Part shown: one piece after another, positions 2,343 through 33,768 of the stretch | Numbering within the stretch: the first letter of the stretch is position 1 | Layout: the number at the start of each line of letters is the position of its first letter | Source of the DNA: a phage | Direction: 5' to 3' (one strand) | DNA: 64,000 nucleotides | Sequence record: PX880103.1 | Program-made: the position numbers and the translations under genes | Notes under the pieces: generated by a model | What the model saw: only the letters and a program-made list of their open reading frames with translations | Database searches by the model: none | What the model was told of the DNA's origin: nothing

Positions 2343-4322
2343 ATGACTTTATTATCTCCGGGCATTGAGCTCAAAGAAACTACGGTTCAAAGCACCGTGG
2401 TTAATAACTCTACTGGTACAGCAGCTTTGGCCGGTAAATTCCAGTGGGGTCCTGCTTTTCAGATTAAACAGGTTACAAATGAAGTAGATTTAGTTAATAC
2501 TTTTGGTCAACCAACCGCTGAAACTGCTGACTATTTTATGTCTGCGATGAATTTCTTGCAGTACGGAAATGACTTACGAGTAGTTCGTGCTGTTGATAGA
2601 GATACCGCTAAAAACTCATCACCAATCGCCGGTAATATTGAATACACAATTTCTACCCCAGGTAGTAACTATGCGGTTGGAGATAAAATCACGGTCAAAT
2701 ATGTTTCAGATGATATTGAAACTGAAGGTAAAATTACTGAAGTAGACGCAGATGGAAAAATTAAGAAAATTAATATTCCTACTGCAAAAATTATCGCTAA
2801 AGCGAAAGAAGTCGGTGAATATCCAACACTAGGTTCTAACTGGACTGCGGAAATTTCTTCATCTTCCTCTGGTTTAGCTGCAGTAATAACTCTTGGAAAA
2901 ATTATTACTGATTCTGGTATTTTATTAGCTGAAATTGAAAATGCTGAAGCTGCTATGACAGCGGTTGACTTTCAAGCAAATCTTAAAAAATATGGAATTC
3001 CAGGAGTAGTAGCGCTTTATCCAGGAGAATTAGGCGATAAAATTGAAATTGAAATCGTATCTAAAGCTGACTATACAAAAGGAGCTTCTGCATTACTCCC
3101 AATTTATCCAGGTGGTGGTACTCGTGCATCTACTGCCAAGGCAGTGTTTGGGTATGGACCGCAAACTGATTCACAGTACGCTATTATAGTTCGTCGCAAT
3201 GATGCTATTGTTCAAAGCATTGTTCTTTCAACTAAGCGTGGTGAAAAAGATATTTACGATAGTAACATCTATATCGATGACTTTTTCGCAAAAGGTGGCT
3301 CAGAATATATTTTTGCAACTGCACAAAACTGGCCAGAAGGCTTCTCTGGAATTTTAACTCTGTCTGGTGGATTATCATCAAATGCTGAAGTATCAGCAGG
3401 AGATTTGATGGAAGCTTGGGACTTCTTTGCTGACCGTGAATCCGTTGATGTTCAACTGTTTATTGCAGGTTCTTGTGCCGGTGAATCTTTAGAAACAGCA
3501 TCTACTGTCCAAAAACACGTCGTTTCAATTGGGGATGCTCGCCAAGATTGCTTAGTATTGTGCTCTCCTCCACGTGAAACTGTAGTTGGAATTCCTGTAA
3601 CTCGTGCAGTAGATAACTTAGTCAATTGGAGAACCGCAGCAGGTTCATACACTGATAATAACTTTAATATCAGTTCAACCTACGCAGCAATTGATGGTAA
3701 CTACAAGTATCAGTATGACAAATATAATGATGTGAATCGTTGGGTTCCATTAGCAGCTGATATTGCTGGTTTATGCGCAAGAACTGATAACGTTTCTCAT
3801 ACTTGGATGTCTCCAGCTGGTTATAATCGTGGCCAGATTCTTAACGTTATTAAACTTGCTATTGAAACTCGCCAAGCTCAGCGCGACCGTTTATATCAAG
3901 AAGCTATTAACCCGGTAACTGGTACAGGTGGTGATGGTTACGTATTGTATGGTGATAAAACAGCTACTTCTGTTCCTTCTCCATTTGATCGTATTAACGT
4001 TCGTCGTCTGTTTAATATGTTGAAAACGAATATCGGACGTAGTTCAAAATATCGTTTGTTCGAATTAAACAACGCGTTTACTCGTTCATCATTCCGCACA
4101 GAAACTGCCCAGTACTTGCAGGGAATTAAAGCTCTCGGTGGAATTTATGAATATCGTGTAGTTTGCGATACAACAAATAACACTCCGTCAGTAATTGATA
4201 GAAATGAGTTTGTTGCAACATTCTACATCCAACCGGCGCGCAGTATAAATTATATTACTTTGAATTTCGTCGCAACTGCTACCGGCGCAGATTTCGATGA
4301 GTTAACTGGTCTTGCAGGTTAA
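2343..4322 (+). CDS. 18: contractile tail sheath protein gp18
   Basis: 659 aa as in T4 gp18; TATAAATA late promoter upstream; synteny. Confidence 0.95.
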   Translation: MTLLSPGIELKETTVQSTVVNNSTGTAALAGKFQWGPAFQIKQVTNEVDLVNTFGQPTAETADYFMSAMNFLQYGNDLRVVRAVDRDTAKNSSPIAGNIEYTISTPGSNYAVGDKITVKYVSDDIETEGKITEVDADGKIKKINIPTAKIIAKAKEVGEYPTLGSNWTAEISSSSSGLAAVITLGKIITDSGILLAEIENAEAAMTAVDFQANLKKYGIPGVVALYPGELGDKIEIEIVSKADYTKGASALLPIYPGGGTRASTAKAVFGYGPQTDSQYAIIVRRNDAIVQSIVLSTKRGEKDIYDSNIYIDDFFAKGGSEYIFATAQNWPEGFSGILTLSGGLSSNAEVSAGDLMEAWDFFADRESVDVQLFIAGSCAGESLETASTVQKHVVSIGDARQDCLVLCSPPRETVVGIPVTRAVDNLVNWRTAAGSYTDNNFNISSTYAAIDGNYKYQYDKYNDVNRWVPLAADIAGLCARTDNVSHTWMSPAGYNRGQILNVIKLAIETRQAQRDRLYQEAINPVTGTGGDGYVLYGDKTATSVPSPFDRINVRRLFNMLKTNIGRSSKYRLFELNNAFTRSSFRTETAQYLQGIKALGGIYEYRVVCDTTNNTPSVIDRNEFVATFYIQPARSINYITLNFVATATGADFDELTGLAG

Positions 4323-4962: not shown

Positions 4963-6587
<1,625 letters not shown>

Positions 6588-6588
<1 letters not shown>

Positions 6589-6833
6589 TGGAAGGTTTAA
6601 TTGAAGCTATTAAATCAAACGACCTCGTAGCCGCTCGTAAATTATTTGCTGAAGCCATGGCTGCAAGAACGATTGATTTAATTAAAGAAGAAAAAATCGC
6701 TATCGCTCGTAATTTCTTAATCGAAGGTGAAGAACCTGAAGACGAGGATGAAGATGAAGATGATGACGAAGATAGCGATGATAAAGACGACAAAAAAGAC
6801 AAAGACTCTGACGAAGACGAGGATGATGAATAA
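6588..6833 (+). CDS. 67: prohead core protein gp67 with acidic C-terminal tail
   Basis: 81 aa; TAATG stop/start coupling to gene 20; poly-Asp/Glu C-terminus; synteny. Confidence 0.88.
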
Positions 6834-7258
6834 TGCTTCTGATCCCTGAAACTCATGAATTAGTTCTCGAGAATGTCGAAGCACTTATTCCTGAAGCACA
6901 GGGTCGCTTTGACGAATTGTCTTCTGCTTTAAATAAAGACGATATAAATACAATTGTCGAGAATATGCTTGATGATGAAACTGATTTAGCGGTTGCATTA
7001 GCTTCTATTAATGAAAATATGCCGTTAAATGAATTCATCGTTAAACATGTTTCCGCCCGTGGTGAAATTACTCGCACTAAAGATCGCAAAACCCGCGAAC
7101 GAAATGCATTTCAAACCACTGGGCTGTCTAAAGCAAAACGTAGACAAATTGCTCGTAAAGCTACCAAAACGAAGATTGCCAATCCAGCAGGTCAATCTCG
7201 TGCTCAGCGTAAGCGTAAAAAAGCTCTTAAACGCCGTAAAGCATTAGGATTAAGCTAA
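6833..7258 (+). CDS. 68: prohead core protein gp68
   Basis: 141 aa; TAATG coupling; basic C-terminus; synteny. Confidence 0.88.
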
Positions 7259-25437: not shown

Positions 25438-26402
25438 TGTATTCTTTAGAGGAATTTAATAATCAAGCAATAAACGCAGATTTCCAACGTAATAATATGT
25501 TTAGCTGCGTTTTTGCGACAACTCCATCAACTAAAAGCTCTTCGTTGATAAGTTCAATTAGCAATTTTTCTTATAATAACTTGGGTCTAAATTCAGATTG
25601 GTTAGGATTGTCTCAAGGCGATATTAATCAGGGAATTACAACGTTAATTACTGCTGGAACACAAAAACTGACAAGAAAATCAGGAGTCAGTAAATATCTA
25701 ATTGGTGCAATGAGTCAACGTACAGTTCAAAGTTTATTAGGCTCATTTACAGTTGGTACATATTTAATTGACTTCTTTAACATGGCATATAACTCATCTG
25801 GATTGATGATATATTCTGTAAAAATGCCAGAGAATAGATTATCTTATGAAACTGACTGGAACTATAATTCTCCTAATATTCGCATAACCGGGAGAGAATT
25901 AGACCCTTTGGTTATTTCATTTAGAATGGATTCAGAGTCGTGTAATTATCGTGCAATGCAAGACTGGGTCAATGCTGTTCAAGACCCAGTAACTGGACTG
26001 CGTGCTTTGCCACAAGATGTCGAGGCAGATATTCAGGTTAATCTTCATGCTCGCAATGGATTACCTCATACCGCAGTGATGTTCACTGGATGTATTCCAG
26101 TGTCAGTGAGTGCTCCTGAGTTATCATATGATGGAGATAACCAAATAACTACATTTGATGTTACTTTTGCGTATAGAGTCATGCAGGCTGGAGCAGTTGA
26201 TAGACAGGCCGCTCTTGAATGGCTTGAATCTGCTACTATAAATGGCATTCAAAGCTCTTCTGGAAATAATGGAGGTGTTACTGAACTATCTGGTTCGCTT
26301 TCACGACTTAGTAGATTAGGGGGAACTGCAGGAAGCATTTCAAATATTAATACTATGACAGGAATTGTCAATTCGCAAAGTAAAATATTAGGAGCAATAT
26401 AA
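25437..26402 (+). CDS. 54: baseplate tail tube initiator gp54
   Basis: 321 aa (T4 gp54 ~320); gp19/gp48-like. Confidence 0.92.
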   Translation: MYSLEEFNNQAINADFQRNNMFSCVFATTPSTKSSSLISSISNFSYNNLGLNSDWLGLSQGDINQGITTLITAGTQKLTRKSGVSKYLIGAMSQRTVQSLLGSFTVGTYLIDFFNMAYNSSGLMIYSVKMPENRLSYETDWNYNSPNIRITGRELDPLVISFRMDSESCNYRAMQDWVNAVQDPVTGLRALPQDVEADIQVNLHARNGLPHTAVMFTGCIPVSVSAPELSYDGDNQITTFDVTFAYRVMQAGAVDRQAALEWLESATINGIQSSSGNNGGVTELSGSLSRLSRLGGTAGSISNINTMTGIVNSQSKILGAI

Positions 26403-26408
26403 CACAAT

Positions 26409-26426
26409 GGGGACCTTTCGGTCCCC
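26409..26426. terminator. bidirectional terminator between gene 54 and the convergent minus-strand operon
   Basis: GGGGACC-TTTC-GGTCCCC followed by ATATTTTTATTT. Confidence 0.65.
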
Positions 26427-26432
26427 ATATTT

Positions 26433-26723
26433 TTATTTACGGAATGAAATGAAAGCAGCAACTGAAGCAACTAAACTGTCTTCAATATAAACTTCAATTT
26501 TTACAGGAGCTTCTGACTCGAATTTACCTGTTACTACACCCTGAAAAATACTTTCAGTCTGTTCTGGCTTTGAAAAATTTTCAGAAGGAAAAATTCCGAA
26601 CTTTTTATCTGTTCCAAAAATTTTAATAAATTCATCGTAAACCGCTTCGTTAAAAGCATTATCAGCAGGAATAACGCCTTCAACTACAAGTTCTTGACCT
26701 AAAAAGCGTAAAGAAGATTTCAT
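26433..26723 (-). CDS. hypothetical protein (alt.-3 position)
   Basis: 96-aa ORF; GTTTAC/TATAAT-type promoter and GAGGAA RBS upstream. Confidence 0.6.
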   Translation of the reverse strand: MKSSLRFLGQELVVEGVIPADNAFNEAVYDEFIKIFGTDKKFGIFPSENFSKPEQTESIFQGVVTGKFESEAPVKIEVYIEDSLVASVAAFISFRK

Positions 26724-26754
26724 TTTGTGTTCCTCATGTTATGTCAGTAAGACT

Positions 26755-26784
26755 ATTATAACACAACATAAGGAACTTGTAAAC
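26755..26784 (-). promoter_or_regulatory. early-type promoter (-35 GTTTAC, 18-nt spacer, -10 TATAAT) for the alt.-3-position ORF
   Basis: Minus strand reads GTTTAC ... TATAAT, then GAGGAA RBS and ATG. Confidence 0.55.
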
Positions 26785-28841
26785 TACATTTTGAACTTTT
26801 TAGACATTCCGTTGATGTTAACCAAAGAAGCTAAGATTTGAGAAACTTCGTTTTCCTCTTCTTTTGATTCTTCTACAAGGAATTGATTAAATCCAGCCAT
26901 TGGACGAACTTCACCAGTTTCCATTAAATGGTCGCCATCATATACTGATTCTTCTAATTGTTCAGAAGGAGGAACGATTGTACCTTCGATTAGATACTTG
27001 TTATAAGCAGTTTCTTTCATAAAGTACGTACTTACTTTATTAATCTTCAGTAAAATTCCACGCGGTAGAATAACTTCAGCTTCTGATGGAAATCCTGATA
27101 AATGACCTGGAACGATAACTTTGATTCGCTCAGCTCCTTTAATTACCATACCCACTCTAGTTTCAGCATCTTCATTAGCGTATGTAGAATGACTACCCAT
27201 ATGCATCAAATCTTCTGCATCAACGGAACCTTCTCCTTCACCAGAAAATACTGCACCGGAATCATCTAGAGCCATATAGTTTTTACCATGCTCGCCGAAG
27301 ATATTTGGTTTAAGTGATGTCGATACGAAGTTCTTGAAATAGAACATTTTGTTTTCAATGTTATGACGCAAAGTTTTAAAGGTAACTTCTTGTCCACGGT
27401 AAAGTGTAGTTCCTGGAGGAAGAACTGATCCTTTGGCAAAGGCAGAATCCAACGTCTCGATGTGCTTAATAGCTCGTTCCATGTATTCTTCACGAGTAGA
27501 ATCTGGTTTACCCAAAAGGAACGAGTTCATTTCAACATATGAATCTGCACAATAATCTTCAATTACATCAGATTCAGCTTGAGTTAATCCTTTTGGAGTT
27601 ACTTCAGTACTTGCGTATTCATATGCCTGGGCAGCAGATTCATTAATCAATTTATAAATGCCATTCATGACGAATTGAATAATAGCTGTCTTTTCATCTG
27701 GCGTGGCTTTAGAACCTTTAACTAAATCATTAATAATTTTCTTAATAACATCAAAGCTATTAGAAATATTAATGTCAGCAAGATCGCTTAAAATTTTATC
27801 AGTTTTATAATCAAAGAATTCTTTATTCTTTAAATATTCTTGAGAACCTTGATATGTTATATCACTCTGCAACTTGATAGATGGATCACGTAAACGCGCA
27901 TGGGCCAATGCGATATGATTTCGGAAGTTTTCTAGTTCATAATCGCTAGATTTAAAACGAGAAGCACTCCTCATACCACCAATAGCTCCTTTGCTGAAGT
28001 TTGAACCAATCTGGATAACGCCAGAGTTCATTGGACCTTCTGCTTTATATACCGGAACTTTAGATTCAAACTCTTGATATTTCTTGGCAGCGAAGCTATC
28101 ACCCTGAAGTGAAGCATCGACAGTAGAATATTGAGCTTGTGCTGCTAATCGACGACTAATTTTAGTTTTCTGAATAACAGCTTGATCAGTGCGCTTATCA
28201 TTTTCTAAAGCAATAGAAGCAGCAACAGCGACAGCTTTAGGAACAGCATCACCTGTTTTAACATCTACATAAACATCACCGACCTTTGATTCAACTTTTG
28301 TGAATAACTCAGTTGAAATAGGAGGTACACCTGGAATGTCTTCTAAATTGGCATTTTTACGGTAAACCATAATATATGCATATTTCTTATCATAATCCCA
28401 GATTTCCTTTAAAAGAACATATCGACCTGCTCCTTTAGTACGTACTAAACGGTCAGCAATAACTTGCATTTGACGAGCTGCGCCATTTGTTTTACTTTTT
28501 AGCACACGGAACAAACACGCGTCAATTTTATACTGCTTCATTGTTTGAAGAGCAGTATCAAAAACAGCATTAATGACGCCAATTGGATTTCCACCCAAGT
28601 TTTTAAGCTTAACTAGTGATAATTTCTCGTTGACACCTATCATTACGATATGCATCATTTTATCGCCTGGCTTAACGTTTTTATTTGTATCACCACCAGA
28701 GGTGTATGTACAAAATCTAAATCCAGGAAGCACGCTTTCTTCACCGGCTTGAATAGCAAAAATTTGAGGTATTTTATGCTTAGGATTTAAGTTAACAACC
28801 GGCGCCGAAGCGCCGTCAAATAATTCTGTAATAAGTTCCAT
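26784..28841 (-). CDS. Alt-like ADP-ribosyltransferase, paralog A
   Basis: 685 aa; N-terminal MELITELFD; ART triad context YRGQ, FVSTSL, EAEVILPRG. Confidence 0.85.
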   Translation of the reverse strand: MELITELFDGASAPVVNLNPKHKIPQIFAIQAGEESVLPGFRFCTYTSGGDTNKNVKPGDKMMHIVMIGVNEKLSLVKLKNLGGNPIGVINAVFDTALQTMKQYKIDACLFRVLKSKTNGAARQMQVIADRLVRTKGAGRYVLLKEIWDYDKKYAYIMVYRKNANLEDIPGVPPISTELFTKVESKVGDVYVDVKTGDAVPKAVAVAASIALENDKRTDQAVIQKTKISRRLAAQAQYSTVDASLQGDSFAAKKYQEFESKVPVYKAEGPMNSGVIQIGSNFSKGAIGGMRSASRFKSSDYELENFRNHIALAHARLRDPSIKLQSDITYQGSQEYLKNKEFFDYKTDKILSDLADINISNSFDVIKKIINDLVKGSKATPDEKTAIIQFVMNGIYKLINESAAQAYEYASTEVTPKGLTQAESDVIEDYCADSYVEMNSFLLGKPDSTREEYMERAIKHIETLDSAFAKGSVLPPGTTLYRGQEVTFKTLRHNIENKMFYFKNFVSTSLKPNIFGEHGKNYMALDDSGAVFSGEGEGSVDAEDLMHMGSHSTYANEDAETRVGMVIKGAERIKVIVPGHLSGFPSEAEVILPRGILLKINKVSTYFMKETAYNKYLIEGTIVPPSEQLEESVYDGDHLMETGEVRPMAGFNQFLVEESKEEENEVSQILASLVNINGMSKKFKM

Positions 28842-28844
28842 GAT

Positions 28845-30941
28845 TTATCCTTGAACGAACTTGTAAGGCATGTTTGTAATATCTATGCAAGACGCAATAA
28901 TTCCAAGAGATGATTCTACTTTCTGTTTAACATTTGATGAAACAAATGATGCAAAGTCAACTCTGTCTTCTATTTCAATATCACCTGTCGTTGTAACTAC
29001 TTCGCCGGTTTCCATTAGACGGTCACCGTCATAAATTACCGATTCGGTGAGTTCTTCCGTGGTCATAACTTCAGCTTGAATGAGTTTTGTATTATTAGAC
29101 GTGGTTCCGTCATTATTAGAAGCATCAGTTATTTTATTAACTTTGACCATCAATCCGCGCGGTAGAATAACTTCAGCTTCTGTTGCTATTCCGAGACTTC
29201 CTGGATATACAACATTAACTTTATGAGCTCCATCAATTGCCCATCCTATTTGAACTTTAACGTATTCAGGATTTTCTTTATACGCTCTTATTTCGTTTGG
29301 ATTAATAGTTATTCCTTCTTCATTTTTATCAACTGTTAATTCATTGCGAGCTTCTGGTTCTAAAAGACCAATACCAGCATGTGTAATTCCAAAACGTCCA
29401 AAAATGATAGGAGTTAAAGAAGTAGATACAAAATTTCTGAAATAGAACACTTTATTTTTAACTAGTGCTTCGTATATAGGAGCAGTCATACTTTGAGCAC
29501 GATAAACTGTAATGCCTTCCGGTATGCGGTCACCATTTTCAAAAGCTGAATCTAAATTATTTATAGCAGATTCAATTTCTTTTTCACTCATTACATCATA
29601 TCGTTCTGGATTGTAACGACCTAAAAGAAGATTATTAATGTCTGTATATCCTGAGCCACAATATTCTCTAATGCCGCGCTTTTGTGATGGAGTATATTTA
29701 GAACCATCACGAGCAATAGTAATATCAATCATTGGACCAGCACCAATTCCAGAAAAACTATAAATCATTCGTTTGAGGAATTTAGTTTTTGCTGCATTCC
29801 AGGCATTTTTAGTTATTTCTTCCCAGACTTCATCTGACTGACCTTTACGAGTTTTATTATGTTTATCAAGCCAATTATCTTTATATTCTTCAAAGAATTG
29901 ATTAACAGCTGCTGCGTATTTCTCTAAACATTTTATTGAAGTAGTTGGTTCATTTTTAATCGCATTAAGAATTACATCTTTAATTTTTTCAGAAACTTCA
30001 TTAACCTCACTTTTTGAAAAGAATTTATAATCATAGTGAAGTTCATCTGCAGTTCCTTCGGCAATAATTTTTGCTGCCTTAGTTTTAGAAGCTAATGAAT
30101 TAATTCCAAGCTTCATTTCTTCTGCTTCGGGAATTAAAGGAGCAGTAGCAGGTTTATTGAAATTAGCTGCGGTAGATTCATACTTCTGGAATAATTCACT
30201 TTCAAATCTAGAAGATTCCAATGACTGACTTTGTGCAATTGCTCTACGGGAAATTTTAACTTTAACGATTACAGCTTGGTCAGAACGTTTATCATTTTCT
30301 TGTGCAATAGATGCTGCAATTGCCTCATTTTTAGTTACTTGAGCTCCGGTATCTTTATTGATATAAACATCACCGACCTTCGATTCAACTTTAGTAAAGA
30401 GCTCGGTACTAATTTCCGGAACTCCTGGAATGTCTTCTAGTGATACATTTTTGCGATGTATAAGAATATATGCATACTTTTTATCGTAATCCCAGAGTTC
30501 CTTAAGAAGGACGTATCTACCACCTGAACGACTACGGATAAGTCTATCAGCAATAACTTGAATTTGTCGAGCTTGGCCAGCAGTTTTAGACTTAAGAATA
30601 CGGAGCATACAGGCATCAATTTTATACTGACGCATCGTTTGCATTGCAACAGTAAAAACTGAATTGATATAATTAATTGGGCTTGGACCAAGACCTTTTA
30701 ATTTAGCAATTGAACCTTTAGCAGTTAATGTAAAAGGAACAATATGCATCATTTTATCGCCCATTTTTAAATCGCGATTAGTATCACCTCCAGATGTATA
30801 GGTACATAAACGAAAGCCTGGTTGTTCAATTGCATCATCAACGTGAACTGAAAAAATTTGCGGTATTTTCTTCTTTGGATTTAAGTTTGTAATCGGAAGA
30901 GTAGTATCTTCGTCAAATAATTCTGTAATGAGTTCCATCAT
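28845..30941 (-). CDS. alt: Alt-like ADP-ribosyltransferase, paralog B (probable Alt ortholog)
   Basis: 698 aa; N-terminal MMELITELFD; YRAQ, FVSTSL, EAEVILPRG; late promoter upstream; adjacent to gene 30. Confidence 0.85.
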   Translation of the reverse strand: MMELITELFDEDTTLPITNLNPKKKIPQIFSVHVDDAIEQPGFRLCTYTSGGDTNRDLKMGDKMMHIVPFTLTAKGSIAKLKGLGPSPINYINSVFTVAMQTMRQYKIDACMLRILKSKTAGQARQIQVIADRLIRSRSGGRYVLLKELWDYDKKYAYILIHRKNVSLEDIPGVPEISTELFTKVESKVGDVYINKDTGAQVTKNEAIAASIAQENDKRSDQAVIVKVKISRRAIAQSQSLESSRFESELFQKYESTAANFNKPATAPLIPEAEEMKLGINSLASKTKAAKIIAEGTADELHYDYKFFSKSEVNEVSEKIKDVILNAIKNEPTTSIKCLEKYAAAVNQFFEEYKDNWLDKHNKTRKGQSDEVWEEITKNAWNAAKTKFLKRMIYSFSGIGAGPMIDITIARDGSKYTPSQKRGIREYCGSGYTDINNLLLGRYNPERYDVMSEKEIESAINNLDSAFENGDRIPEGITVYRAQSMTAPIYEALVKNKVFYFRNFVSTSLTPIIFGRFGITHAGIGLLEPEARNELTVDKNEEGITINPNEIRAYKENPEYVKVQIGWAIDGAHKVNVVYPGSLGIATEAEVILPRGLMVKVNKITDASNNDGTTSNNTKLIQAEVMTTEELTESVIYDGDRLMETGEVVTTTGDIEIEDRVDFASFVSSNVKQKVESSLGIIASCIDITNMPYKFVQG

Positions 30942-30961
30942 ATCCTCTCTAGTGTTTATTC

Positions 30962-30969
30962 TATTTATA
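30962..30969 (-). promoter_or_regulatory. late promoter (TATAAATA on minus strand) for the alt paralog pair
   Basis: Plus-strand TATTTATA about 20 nt upstream of the alt-B start. Confidence 0.55.
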
Positions 30970-30974
30970 AAATT

Positions 30975-30993
30975 AAAGGCCCGAAGGCCTTTA
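30975..30993 (-). terminator. hairpin at the 3' end of the 62-aa ORF, upstream of the alt late promoter
   Basis: AAAGGCC-CGAA-GGCCTTT (UUCG loop on the minus-strand RNA). Confidence 0.5.
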
Positions 30994-31179
30994 ATAATCT
31001 ATTGGTAAGAGAGTACGATATATTTCAAACTTTGGACCTTTTTCATAAGCATCAAAAGTTTCTGTGAATTTATTATAAGCATATGCATCTATAAATTCAA
31101 GCATGATTTGTGATACAGAAGTAGAAACATCTCCACCTTCTTTTTGAGCCACGACAATTGTTTCTAAGTAAGCTTTCAT
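30991..31179 (-). CDS. hypothetical small protein
   Basis: 62-aa ORF between gene 30 and alt; hairpin terminator at its 3' end. Confidence 0.5.
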   Translation of the reverse strand: MKAYLETIVVAQKEGGDVSTSVSQIMLEFIDAYAYNKFTETFDAYEKGPKFEIYRTLLPIDY

Positions 31180-32639
31180 AGACCAGTTACCTCATGAAAA
31201 TCACCAAATACATCCTCGAATGTATTAGCTTTAGTTTTATCTTCACGCAAACGAATCGCAATTGGAAGAAATAATTTAACGTAATCAGTGCGGCCATCAG
31301 ATTTTAACCAACCGTTGCATTCGCACTCTAGAATTTTTCCAATATAATAATTTTGGTTTTCCATAATGCGAGTACGGTCAAGTTCATGTGATTTTACGCC
31401 GGCTTTATCTTTTAAGCCTGAACCAGCATTTACTTTAATTTTTCCACACTCTGACTCAAGAATAAATCCACCTGCTTTAGTAGGGTCTTTACGGTGAGGA
31501 TAAATTCCTACAATTTTTAAATCAACATCAATTACTTCTTTAAATTTATAGAGATTTTTTGAACGAGCATTTTCCCATAATCCATCGATATTTTTGAGAA
31601 TAATACCTTCAAGACCTTGGTCAATATACTTTTTATAAATTACCTTAGCTTCATCTAGGTTATTTACTACCTGGTTTTCAATTAAAATTACTTTATCATA
31701 GCCTGATGTCATTTGTTCTAGTTTAGAAAAACGTACATCATATTTTAAACGAAATGCTGGAAGACCGTATATTTCTACCAACGGGACATAATCCCAGACC
31801 TGAAACTTCATGCATTGAGCTTCTTTTTCAGAAATGGTTCCCTTTAAAGATTTATTGGCGATGCCATTAGATGCAGTACGTGATTCAGCTACTTCTGCGA
31901 AGTCTTTAACTTTACTGTTTTCAGGATGAGCATCAAAAAGAAAATCTAGGCCTTCTGGCTCCTTTTTAACTTGCTCATGGTATACCAATTCGCCATCAAT
32001 TAACACACCTTCTGGATGAATCTGGCGAGCTTCAGCAGTCATTTTGATTAATTCTTCCTTAAGAAGATCTAATCCTAGATATTCATTACCAGCTCGTGAT
32101 AAAAGACGAACATCATCTAATTCATCACCTCTGACTTCAGCAAAGCACCGAGCCCCATCAGCTTTTAACTGGGCAAAGGCTGGAAATTTGATATTCTTAT
32201 TAATGCCTTTTTCATCATAAGAACTTGCAAGCATTTGAGGTTGTTCAGGAATTAAACCTGGCCAAACTTTGTTTGCAATAGATACTGAAGCACCACATTC
32301 AAGGTCTCGCATCATCACTCGACGCAAAACTTCAACATCATCTTTTTTACCATCGGTGATGTATCCAGTTAATTCCTCAATTGCCGCATTTCCAGTCAAT
32401 TTCCGAGTAGCTAACGTGAATTCAATGAAGTCAAGCATATCGGTAAGAGTCAACATTCCAAAACTCTGGGTAGCAATACCAGGTTTAGGCCATTTCTTGA
32501 TATAATACTGCAACCCACGAGAATAAGTCAGACGATATACTCGTTTAAGCAATTCATTATCTTTATTCTTTTCAAGAATTGCTTGCTTCTGCTTAGTTGA
32601 ACCAATAGATGCTATTTCGTTCAGAATTTTAAGAATCAT
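31176..32639 (-). CDS. 30: ATP-dependent DNA ligase gp30
   Basis: 487 aa as in T4 DNA ligase; adenylation-site lysine in AQLKADGARCF. Confidence 0.95.
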   Translation of the reverse strand: MILKILNEIASIGSTKQKQAILEKNKDNELLKRVYRLTYSRGLQYYIKKWPKPGIATQSFGMLTLTDMLDFIEFTLATRKLTGNAAIEELTGYITDGKKDDVEVLRRVMMRDLECGASVSIANKVWPGLIPEQPQMLASSYDEKGINKNIKFPAFAQLKADGARCFAEVRGDELDDVRLLSRAGNEYLGLDLLKEELIKMTAEARQIHPEGVLIDGELVYHEQVKKEPEGLDFLFDAHPENSKVKDFAEVAESRTASNGIANKSLKGTISEKEAQCMKFQVWDYVPLVEIYGLPAFRLKYDVRFSKLEQMTSGYDKVILIENQVVNNLDEAKVIYKKYIDQGLEGIILKNIDGLWENARSKNLYKFKEVIDVDLKIVGIYPHRKDPTKAGGFILESECGKIKVNAGSGLKDKAGVKSHELDRTRIMENQNYYIGKILECECNGWLKSDGRTDYVKLFLPIAIRLREDKTKANTFEDVFGDFHEVTGL

Positions 32640-32905
32640 TGTTCATCCTTTAGAGTTTGGTTTACAGCTCTATTATAAATCAATTCATCATTAAGCTCAG
32701 TCAAAGACCTATGGTACGTGGTTCTAACTTTATTTCCTTGCATCCAATGCTTGACGTAAATGAAACCTTGCTCTACACATTTTTTAAAAATTCGTTCGTC
32801 TTTTTGAGCTCGGAATTCTGGATTGCATCTAAAAAATTGATTTACGTGACCATAATCACGTGTAGTATTACCTTCATTTTCATAAATAGTGTGAACGACA
32901 AACAT
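32636..32905 (-). CDS. hypothetical protein (30.1 position)
   Basis: 89-aa ORF, translationally coupled. Confidence 0.6.
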   Translation of the reverse strand: MFVVHTIYENEGNTTRDYGHVNQFFRCNPEFRAQKDERIFKKCVEQGFIYVKHWMQGNKVRTTYHRSLTELNDELIYNRAVNQTLKDEQ

Positions 32906-33768
32906 TAGAATGCTCCTTGGAAAATATTATCACCACTAGTAATTCTATTAAAATACCCTGCGTCGCCAGGCTTAATATAACTCCACGTATGGAATGGATT
33001 CATATGATATAGATGTGTATAATATGGATTATATGGATGTGTATAATATGGATGATATGGATTTAATCCAGGAGTTCTCCATGTAGTATTTTGGCGAAAA
33101 GAATCGTTTTTAACCATCTTCTCAATTACATCTTTTATAGCTTTTTCACTATCAAAACTTTCTTTATTTTCCTTCGGCGAAAAAAGCTTATTTTCTACAT
33201 CATTCCATGTATAAACTCGCTGAGCAGTTTTTGGAATATTGTCACGCTCTCCTCGAGCCATCCAATAAACTGGAACATTTAATATTTCACTCGCATGATC
33301 GCAGTGGTGAGCGAGATCGTCAATATAACAAATTACGTTATATTTCTCTTTTGCCTTTTTGAACAACTCTTCTTTTGAAGAATCATGACCACACATCATT
33401 ACTTCTGAGAAGGCACCAGGAAAAAGAGCATTCAAATTAAATTGACGATTCAACAGAGCGTCAATAGAATCACCCAATGCTGTAACAGCTACAAAATTAT
33501 AATCTTCTTTTAATTTGTTAATTACACACAGGGCATCTTTATATGGAGACAAGTAACGAATAAAATCCGAACGATTGTATTTTTCAATTAACTTGACGCC
33601 AAGTTCTTCATCACAGTTAAAGAGTTTACCAGGAGAAATAAATTTCTCATCCTGGATCATTTTTAAAATATGTTCTAACGGAAGATTATATTTCTGAGCA
33701 AAATAAGGAAGGCCTGATTGCCAGCTTAAACATACTCCATCAATATCAGTTAAAATAGTAGGCTTCAT
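32905..33768 (-). CDS. HAD-superfamily hydrolase-like protein with Tyr/His/Pro-rich repeat tail (30.2 position)
   Basis: 287 aa; N-terminal ILTDIDGV (HAD motif I); C-terminal NPYHPYYTHPYNPYYTHLY encoded by a 2-copy direct DNA repeat. Confidence 0.7.
   Translation of the reverse strand: MKPTILTDIDGVCLSWQSGLPYFAQKYNLPLEHILKMIQDEKFISPGKLFNCDEELGVKLIEKYNRSDFIRYLSPYKDALCVINKLKEDYNFVAVTALGDSIDALLNRQFNLNALFPGAFSEVMMCGHDSSKEELFKKAKEKYNVICYIDDLAHHCDHASEILNVPVYWMARGERDNIPKTAQRVYTWNDVENKLFSPKENKESFDSEKAIKDVIEKMVKNDSFRQNTTWRTPGLNPYHPYYTHPYNPYYTHLYHMNPFHTWSYIKPGDAGYFNRITSGDNIFQGAF
32979..33024. repeat. two-copy tandem direct repeat (~24 bp) inside the 3' end of the HAD-like gene
   Basis: GATGTGTATAATATGGATTATA TG GATGTGTATAATATGGATGATA; encodes the Y/H/P-rich C-terminal tail. 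Confidence 0.7.

Follow-up and report, generated by a model that had tools for sequence, protein, structure and literature searches.

Tandem alt and alt.-2 genes encoding Alt-like ADP-ribosyltransferases at the T2/T6-type alt locus of a Tequatrovirus phage

Two adjacent alt genes and their surroundings

The window analyzed here is a whole stretch of 64,000 nucleotides of phage DNA (sequence record PX880103.1), in which two large genes, alt and alt.-2, are flanked by gene 30/alt.1 on one side and alt.-3/gene 54 on the other and are carried on the opposite strand from the baseplate genes. A preliminary description of this DNA had reported two tandem open reading frames of 685 and 698 aa, and both were recovered on the minus strand, at exactly the stated coordinates, in the ORF list. 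The locus comprises the following features:

31176-32639: DNA ligase gp30, adjoining alt.1
30991..31179, minus strand: alt.1, upstream neighbor, 62 aa, Pfam Phage_blade; in synteny with T4 and T2
30975-30992: GC hairpin after alt.1, preceding TATAAATA
30962..30969, minus strand: putative promoter with the T4 late consensus TATAAATA, 21 nt ahead of the first alt ATG
28845..30941, minus strand: alt ORF at its longest, 698 aa from the first ATG
28845..30938, minus strand: alt, upstream paralog, 697 aa from the second ATG; T2/T6-type allele of T4 alt
28842..28855, minus strand: alt/alt.-2 junction with the alt stop TAA (28845-28847), a 3-nt spacer and an AAGGA Shine-Dalgarno sequence
26784..28841, minus strand: full-length alt.-2, downstream paralog and second Alt-like ADP-ribosyltransferase, 685 aa
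26755-26783: alt.-3's own promoter, sigma-70/T4-early type
26433..26723, minus strand: alt.-3, downstream neighbor, 96 aa, DUF5498; in synteny with T4 and T2
26407-26428: bidirectional hairpin terminator common to alt.-3 and gene 54

The gene order ligase - alt.1 - alt - alt.-2 - alt.-3 - 54 matches that of T2, RB51 and JS98. Both ORFs had been said to begin with MELITELFD, which is true of the 685-aa ORF but not of the 698-aa ORF, which opens with MMELITELFD. Since the T4 and T2 annotations use the second ATG, the alt protein is probably 697 aa long and starts with MELITELFD.

The region upstream of alt presents the same order of hairpin, TATAAATA and Shine-Dalgarno sequence as that of T4 alt, and TATAAATA is likely to act as the promoter for alt. 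At the other end of the gene, 3 nt separate the alt stop from the alt.-2 start, and the AAGGA Shine-Dalgarno sequence, which coincides in part with the final codons of alt, precedes the alt.-2 ATG by 8 nt. A scan between alt and alt.-2 found no promoter or terminator consensus, and no late-promoter consensus is present directly before alt.-2. The two genes are 3 nt apart and no terminator intervenes, from which we infer that alt and alt.-2 are co-transcribed. A single late transcript starting at the TATAAATA promoter would cover both; alt.-2 would be translated from its own Shine-Dalgarno sequence, starting 3 nt past the alt stop, and its translation may be coupled to that of alt.

Shared and divergent domains of the two paralogs

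Judged by its sequence, each paralog is an Alt-family arginine-type mono-ADP-ribosyltransferase (ART). Pfam PF03496 ADPrib_exo_Tox was matched by the 685-aa protein (4e-20, 72.4 bits) and by the 698-aa ORF (2e-37, 128.8 bits), with a cutoff of 23.4 bits. Similarly, phrog_802 aligned over the full length of both proteins at profile positions 2-674, covering aa 1-685 of alt.-2 (1e-256) and aa 1-696 of alt (4e-271). Homologs of both proteins carry PF26846 Tevenvirinae_ADPRT in addition to PF03496, the PF26846 assignment being taken from the precomputed annotation of close homologs. The R / S-T-S / E-x-E motifs are intact in both ORFs, as first described (YR482GQ, FVS507TS509L and E587AE589VILPRG in the 685-aa protein; YR481AQ, FVS506TS508L and E588AE590VILPRG in the 698-aa ORF). 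Alignment showed that neither copy lacks catalytic residues, with R, S, S, E and E invariant across a 21-sequence family alignment. In T4 Alt, mutation of the second Glu of E-x-E abolishes activity (PMC11404850).

An ART fold was found for both paralogs, and that of alt.-2 is predicted with good confidence, the AF2 models being of moderate confidence overall and the alignments shallow (21 sequences). The R and E-x-E of the paralogs align with those of CDTa and iota toxin, and Foldseek with the alt AF2 model matched Vis, CDTa, iota Ia, VIP2 and C3. Members of this clade have the ART fold, R, S-T-S and E-x-E in common with the Alt paralogs, but they are bacterial secreted toxins without the N-terminal phage-head domain. 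The segment from S-T-S to E-x-E is also longer in the Alt family, with 78-80 residues here as opposed to about 40 in iota Ia. T4 ModA and ModB, of the same ART clade as Alt, are set apart by description as small, early enzymes made after infection and not packaged, with neither the N-terminal head domain nor propeptides. The domains of the two paralogs were delimited as follows (alt in 697-aa numbering):

29697..30224, minus strand: alt middle region, aa 239-414, predicted all-helical; allele-specific
29058..29696, minus strand: alt ART domain, aa 415-627, with R480, S505-T-S507 and E587-A-E589
28152..28841, minus strand: alt.-2 N-terminal domain, aa 1-230, predicted alpha/beta (AF2 secondary structure)
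27597..28139, minus strand: alt.-2 middle region, aa 235-415, predicted all-helical (AF2 helices, pLDDT 73-92); paralog-specific
26967..27596, minus strand: alt.-2 ART domain, aa 416-625, with R482, S507-T-S509 and E587-A-E589

Over their full length the 685-aa and 698-aa proteins are 41% identical (BLASTP, E 2e-162), and pairwise and profile alignment placed the similarity in the N-terminal and ART domains and none in the middle. The pair had been described as sharing an N-terminal leader followed by divergent bodies. The divergence holds, but the leader turned out to be a whole domain of about 235 aa that is 68% identical between alt and alt.-2 (profile-profile E 3.5e-95, hhalign). The ART domains are just 36% identical (hhalign E 2e-44) and strongly divergent in the segment from S-T-S to E-x-E, with 2/31 identities in one window. 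The middle regions, previously regarded as essentially unrelated at roughly residues 230-430, proved to be so at about aa 235-415, where identity in windows is 10-20% and profile-profile comparison detected no similarity (hhalign probability 1%, E 0.05).

Distribution of the pair and its remnant in T4

A second intact paralog is not new, contrary to what the preliminary description implied. Over 4.8 kb, the region shares 97-98% identity with T2, T6 and RB32, and coverage is at least 80% in 295 records. The 685-aa protein is found at an identity of at least 95% in about 400 phage records, its 90% cluster holds 772 member sequences, and its middle region occurs at 90% identity or above in 402 phage records, one copy per record. 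For the alt protein, 293 phage records, those of T2, T6 and RB51 among them, contain a version with >95% identity. Overall, two genes at this locus are the usual condition in Tequatrovirus, and about three quarters of sequenced Tequatrovirus records harbor a second Alt-like enzyme that is intact and strongly conserved.

In T2, T6, RB32 and RB51 (NC_054931 KMC23_gp210/gp211; FJ839693 RB51ORF199/198) the genes stand in the same order with the same 3-nt spacer, and RefSeq/GenBank annotates them as two Alt-like ARTs or as alt and alt.-2. Their products are 98-99% (alt.-2) and 97-99% (alt) identical to those described here, with alt.-2 at 99.4% identity to its T2 counterpart and at 98.1% to RB51 'alt.-2', and the pairs differ from the present one by a few percent, mostly synonymous. 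Dhakavirus JS98 carries a pair at the same position (YP_001595323, YP_001595322) whose bodies are orthologous copy for copy to the present ones but just 45-60% identical. The tandem arrangement is already known, being annotated in all five phages and remarked on in print. Nolan et al. 2006 described alt duplications, one of them full-length in phage 44RR (PMC1524935), and a 2026 paper notes the paralogs and speculates on functional divergence or expanded targets (PMC13600099). Sequences of alt from T2 and T6 have been in the databases since the 1990s (X69893, X69894), and PMC11404850 cites Koch & Ruger, Virology 1994, for their publication. We put the probability at roughly 85% that this is the standard T2/T6-type Tequatrovirus alt locus, with tandem alt and full-length alt.-2 encoding Alt-family ARTs of ~690 aa. 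A recent duplication peculiar to the present phage might be read from the contrast with reference T4 only. It is refuted by the occurrence of the pair at the equivalent position in T2, T6, RB32 and RB51 as well as in hundreds of further records, and by the orthologous pair in JS98, and the duplications reported by Nolan et al. likewise leave it practically no probability. As a genome feature the tandem pair is ordinary, and its value lies in the reminder that T4 is atypical at the alt locus.

T4 had been said to carry a single alt followed by the small ORFs alt.-1, alt.-2 and alt.-3, and its annotation confirms this; two full-length alt paralogs are not present there. T4 Alt (gpAlt, NP_049811), a head-packaged and injected NAD+:arginine ART, occupies the same locus as the present pair and has the same architecture of about 690 aa. 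The alt described here has the same promoter and Shine-Dalgarno context and is 72% identical to T4 Alt overall, rising to 100% in aa 1-240 and to about 90-94% in the final 60-100 aa. It represents a different allele, with about 33% identity in the middle module and 66% in the ART domain, and its stretch 29703-30131 has no blastn match in T4 alt. Between the 685-aa paralog and T4 Alt, overall identity is 46%, and the middle modules show no detectable resemblance.

The small T4 ORFs alt.-1 and alt.-2 (NP_049810, NP_049809; phrog_23015, phrog_15247) are a remnant of full-length alt.-2. They match its N-terminus, aa 1-56 (2e-40) and aa 62-117 (3e-38) of the 685-aa protein respectively, and their DNA is nearly identical to the corresponding part of the full-length gene. 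Two deletions disrupted the T4 gene: the loss of 1 nt from an A-run, which shifts the frame, and the loss of 1,699 bp between two CTAAAAAGT repeats. In the present phage these repeats lie at:

28494..28502, minus strand: upstream copy of the 9-bp direct repeat CTAAAAAGT, alt.-2 codons 114-116; T4 deletion end point
26795..26803, minus strand: downstream copy of CTAAAAAGT, alt.-2 codon 680 onward; the other T4 deletion end point

T4 lacks the 1,699 bp between the starts of the two repeats, and the T4-type junction is found in 91/500 records. It is this deletion that makes T4 exceptional at the alt locus, and the T4 arrangement is the derived state. The reverse history, with the T4 arrangement ancestral and the full-length copy rebuilt, is very unlikely because of the shared 9-bp junction and the frameshift.

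The body of alt.-2 is 45/59/59% identical (middle/ART/C-terminal tail) to the downstream JS98 copy as opposed to 17/35/41% to the other, and the alt body shows the converse preference, being closest to that other copy. The N-terminal domains are more alike within a genome (65-68%) than to their positional orthologs in JS98 (43-46%). The duplication is older than the split of Tequatrovirus and Dhakavirus, and T4 lost most of alt.-2 through the CTAAAAAGT-repeat deletion and the frameshift, leaving the ORFs alt.-1 and alt.-2.

Among the records, the alt locus shows recombinational instability in the form of deletions and hybrid genes, including natural single hybrids in which the N-terminus of alt is fused to the body of alt.-2.

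Purifying selection on both genes is strong, with dN/dS of 0.018-0.047 for alt.-2 (versus T2 and RB51) and 0.076-0.087 for alt. These values bear on the idea that the downstream copy is decaying or non-enzymatic, either a structural core component or an incipient pseudogene, as in T4. Its loss in T4 and about 90 related records and the instability of the locus are in keeping with such a decay. Nevertheless, alt.-2 is intact in the roughly 400 records noted above, its dN/dS (0.02-0.05) lies below that of alt, it retains all catalytic residues and both cleavage motifs, and its ART fold is predicted with good confidence, all of which makes a decaying or non-enzymatic copy highly improbable.

Packaging signals and possible targets

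The preliminary description had also proposed processing by the prohead protease at an I-x-E site. Such a site, ITE-6, is indeed present in both ORFs, together with a conserved C-terminal LxE motif; the two motifs are aligned in both paralogs, and E6 and E631 are invariant in the 21-sequence alignment. The segments concerned are:

28824-28841, minus strand: alt.-2 propeptide MELITE, aa 1-6; ITE-6 is the mapped T4 Alt cleavage site
26787..26948, minus strand: alt.-2 C-terminal tail, aa 632-685, after L629-E-E631; predicted propeptide
28848-29042, minus strand: predicted alt C-terminal propeptide, after LTE-632

The C-terminal tail of alt.-2 is disordered in the AF2 model (pLDDT <50 for 629-675), as is that of alt. 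T4 Alt, which has the ITE-6 and LTE/LxE cleavage motifs and the R/STS/ExE site in common with both paralogs, is cleaved at ITE-6 and LTE-619 as mapped by mass spectrometry, the latter cut removing 63 residues (PMC5694885). It is present in the virion at about 40 copies and is ejected with the DNA (PMC9958956, PMC9026906). By analogy with T4 Alt, both proteins would enter the prohead core via their shared N-terminal part, the MELITE propeptide and the 230-aa alpha/beta domain. The conserved motifs suggest that gp21 removes six N-terminal residues after ITE and about 54-65 C-terminal residues after LEE-631 or LTE-632, and the mature enzymes, about 625 aa each, would be ejected together with the DNA. 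Once in the host, they would ADP-ribosylate arginines of host proteins with NAD+ via the R / S-T-S / E-x-E site. The searchable literature holds no experiment on the virion presence, cleavage, ejection, enzyme activity or targets of the alt.-2 product.

The two predicted enzymes differ completely in the ~180-aa helical module ahead of the ART domain. Further differences lie in the long insert that separates S-T-S from E-x-E and three residues before E-x-E, where Phe in one and Ile in the other align with a Tyr of CDTa in what is taken as the ARTT loop. These differences, which concern non-catalytic parts, suggest that the two enzymes probably recognize partly different substrates, and two different injected ARTs with different targets are a reasonable inference.

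Alternatively, the two may be functionally redundant, both being packaged and both mainly modifying RNA polymerase alpha Arg265, with the second copy serving dose or robustness and the middle modules playing no role in targeting. Arg265 is a ModA target (PMC5512222, PMC2988021) and is also modified by T4 Alt (PMC2988021). The paralogs have the same catalytic cores, an arginine-type E-x-E and the same packaging and processing signals, T4 manages with a single copy, and the hybrid genes are likewise single. On the other hand, the two bodies have stayed distinct from a time before Tequatrovirus and Dhakavirus separated, with strong purifying selection acting on each, and pure redundancy rarely preserves two copies so different, with ART domains at 36% identity and middle modules devoid of detectable similarity. 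T4 Alt has moreover been reported to modify many proteins (PMC2988021). Overall, redundancy appears rather unlikely.

A division of targets would go furthest if the alt.-2 product were a fourth Tequatrovirus ART, packaged and injected, which acts on other host targets, possibly defence or translation factors, via its own helical module and ART insert. We regard this as plausible, at slightly less than even odds. If true, the textbook picture of a takeover by 'three ARTs' would be incomplete for most T-even phages, laboratory T4 having lost the fourth. The contribution of alt.-2 may be small or host-specific, since T4 grows well without it and T4 alt is itself non-essential (PMC9026906).

Tandem alt genes and the T4 arrangement

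The preliminary description placed two long open reading frames at 26784-30941, and both were found exactly there:

26784-28841, minus strand: 685-aa ORF (alt.-2)
28845-30941, minus strand: 698-aa ORF (alt)

The upstream ORF opens with ATG-ATG, and since the second ATG is the annotated start in T4 and T2, the alt protein is probably 697 aa long. With this start both proteins begin with MELITELFD, like T4 Alt; the shared opening described earlier thus holds, and the length of 698 aa probably does not. On the minus strand, DNA ligase gp30 is followed in order by alt.1, alt (697 aa), alt.-2 (685 aa) and alt.-3; the locus is the T-even alt locus. At the junction of the two genes, the alt stop codon, a 3-nt spacer and the alt.-2 ATG follow in direct succession, with an AAGGA Shine-Dalgarno sequence for alt.-2 overlapping the final alt codons. 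A bidirectional hairpin separates the end of alt.-3 from the plus-strand genes 54 and 48, and an Rfam scan of 26000-31500 returned no RNA elements.

As described earlier, T4 carries a single alt (682 aa) followed by small ORFs, namely alt.-1 (61 aa), alt.-2 (67 aa) and alt.-3. Together, T4 alt.-1 and alt.-2 are almost identical to residues 1-117 of the 685-aa protein, and the T4 RefSeq note describes them as a duplicated first part of alt. DNA alignment revealed two lesions in T4. The first, loss of 1 nt from an A-run, splits alt.-1 from alt.-2. The second is a junction lying exactly at the 9-bp CTAAAAAGT, which is present twice in the intact gene as a direct repeat (28494-28502 and 26795-26803); T4 thus lacks the 1,699 bp between the repeats. 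Its alt.-2 ORF runs on into the alt.-3 early promoter and ends inside it. The two deletions account base by base for the T4 remnant (3040-3451 of the T4 comparison locus). A query across the T4 junction was covered contiguously in 91/500 records, making the T4 arrangement a minority state. On these alignments, T4 is the derived state.

The second intact paralog had implicitly been treated as something unusual, which is not borne out: the T2 RefSeq record contains the same two long genes, each named 'Alt-like RNA polymerase ADP-ribosyltransferase', and in RB51 and RB32 the second long gene is labelled alt.-2. Across 4.8 kb, the region shares 97-98% identity with T2, T6, RB32 and many more records, and at least 80% of it is covered in 295 records. 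By tblastn, the 685-aa protein was found at 95% identity or more in 397 records, and the middle module specific to alt.-2 at 90% or more in 402, always in one copy per record. Overall, the tandem pair is the usual, already annotated T-even state and T4 is the exception. Separate entries for the alt genes of T2 and T6 (X69893, X69894) date back decades and correspond to Koch & Ruger 1994, cited in PMC11404850. Our literature search for experimental work on alt.-2 or any second Alt found none, and returned only Nolan 2006, the one relevant open-access paper containing 'alt.-2', where alt duplications were noted (PMC1524935), and a 2026 note on the genome of phage 6phi13, which reports the same paralogs (43.3% identity) with the same speculation on expanded targets (PMC13600099).

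Domain architecture and catalytic motifs

The alt and alt.-2 proteins align end to end (41% identity, E 2e-162). Both pass the Pfam PF03496 threshold and align along their entire length with phrog_802 ('Alt-like RNA polymerase ADP-ribosyltransferase'); no NCBIfam model matched the Alt-like proteins and a PDB search found no solved Alt structure. The ADP-ribosyltransferase (ART) motifs quoted previously, R / S-T-S / E-x-E, are present in both proteins, and a family alignment of 21 members shows no variation at the catalytic R, S, S, E and E. AF2 models of the two paralogs (pLDDT 74 and 72) follow one common plan:

N-terminus of both: short helix
about aa 12-225: alpha/beta domain
about aa 250-415: all-helical middle module
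about aa 420-625: ART domain
C-terminus of both: disordered tail

The similarity earlier ascribed to a common N-terminal leader is real, yet it spans a whole domain of ~235 aa (68% identity) rather than a mere leader. Comparing small family alignments with hhalign, we obtained E 3.5e-95 for the N-terminal domains and E 2e-44 for the ART domains, and no remote homology for the middle modules (probability 1%). Given this lack of detectable profile-profile similarity, the characterization of the middle regions as essentially unrelated is upheld at the sequence level. On the other hand, both modules match identical positions of the mixed phrog_802 profile, are predicted to be helical and are similar in length, so that a very distant common origin with extreme divergence is possible. 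The two ART domains also differ strongly in the insert that separates S-T-S from E-x-E. Three positions before E-x-E, at what we take to be part of the substrate-recognising ARTT loop, the 685-aa protein has Phe and the 697-aa protein Ile, and CDTa carries Tyr.

Packaging, expression and proposed function

In T4, Alt belongs to the prohead core (~40 copies) and is ejected along with the DNA (PMC9958956, PMC9026906). According to mass spectrometry, gp21 cuts it after ITE-6 and LTE-619, with loss of 63 C-terminal residues (PMC5694885). Both window proteins retain ITE-6, and each has an aligned L-x-E directly before a conserved SV(I)YDGD (LEE-631 in the 685-aa protein, LTE-632/633 in alt), after which the tail is disordered in both AF2 models.

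A hairpin followed by the late-promoter consensus TATAAATA precedes alt, with the consensus 21 nt upstream of the first ATG; T4 has exactly this arrangement. No comparable late promoter directly precedes alt.-2, from which we infer that the two genes are co-transcribed. A second exact TATAAATA occurs inside alt (29558-29565, minus strand), ~717 nt ahead of where alt.-2 starts. It could be a chance match, as about 8.5 are expected per window, or a candidate internal late promoter for alt.-2. In addition, alt.-2 and alt.-3 are 60 nt apart, and this gap holds a near-consensus sigma-70/T4-early-type promoter (26755-26783, minus strand; TTTACA, 17 nt, TG-n-TATAAT; 11/12), so alt.-3 is probably an early gene that immediately follows two late ones.

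The evidence best supports a reading in which both paralogs are packaged, injected arginine-type mono-ADP-ribosyltransferases with partly different substrates. Both would be made late, targeted to the core, trimmed by gp21 and injected, and their differing helical modules and ART inserts would confer partly different substrate ranges. For the alt.-2 product, we infer packaging, cleavage, activity and targets. The earlier interpretation of the pair as two different injected enzymes is reasonable.

Age, selection and allelic diversity

Dhakavirus JS98 carries a tandem pair in the same place. The body of the 685-aa protein (middle/ART/C-terminal tail) is 45/59/59% identical to the downstream JS98 copy vs 17/35/41% to the upstream one, and the 697-aa body is closest to the upstream copy. 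This copy-for-copy pairing indicates that the duplication predates the Tequatrovirus/Dhakavirus split. In contrast, the N-terminal domains (window 28152-28841 and 30243-30938; JS98 locus 1410-2120 and 3498-4210) resemble their tandem partner (68% identity in the window, 65% in JS98) more closely than their positional ortholog in the other genus (43-46%), a pattern that suggests gene conversion within the pair or, alternatively, co-evolution with the head core. Strong purifying selection acts on both genes (dN/dS among the window, T2 and RB51: 0.018-0.047 for alt.-2, 0.076-0.087 for alt) and is demonstrated for the paralogs alongside motifs, fold, synteny and conservation.

Relative to T4 alt, the window alt (28845-30938) is a mosaic. 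Protein identity is 100% over the first 240 codons, about 33% in the middle module, 66% in the ART domain and about 90-94% over the last 60-100 codons; 29703-30131 has no blastn match in T4. Tequatrovirus has at least two alt alleles in circulation: the window type (95% identity or more) occurs in 293 records and the T4 type (60-80%) in 211. YUEEL01 is one example in which a T4-type alt accompanies an intact alt.-2.

A natural hybrid, the homolog P0006, joins an alt-type N-terminal domain (99%) to an alt.-2 body (99-100%). Its gene (5001-7061 of the locus from metagenome contig SRR19633722_48321) is the sole copy between alt.1 and the alt.-3 promoter, a layout as expected from a putative unequal crossover between tandem copies. 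Three further homologs (P0003-P0005) have intermediate N-terminal domains. Few proteins carry the Alt N-terminal domain: among 1.84 billion, they form 74 clusters at 50% identity, and the domain is always N-terminal. In a few carriers of 347-1142 aa (P0182, P0184, P0187, P0188) no ART domain was detectable after it, and the domain could be a head-delivery module for other cargoes. Finally, the gene 30.2 homolog (32905-33768, minus strand) encodes 287 aa vs 278 aa in T4 (CDS 837 nt) and ends C-terminally in a Pro/Tyr/His-rich repetitive stretch, NPYHPYYTHPYNPYYTHLYHMNPFH.
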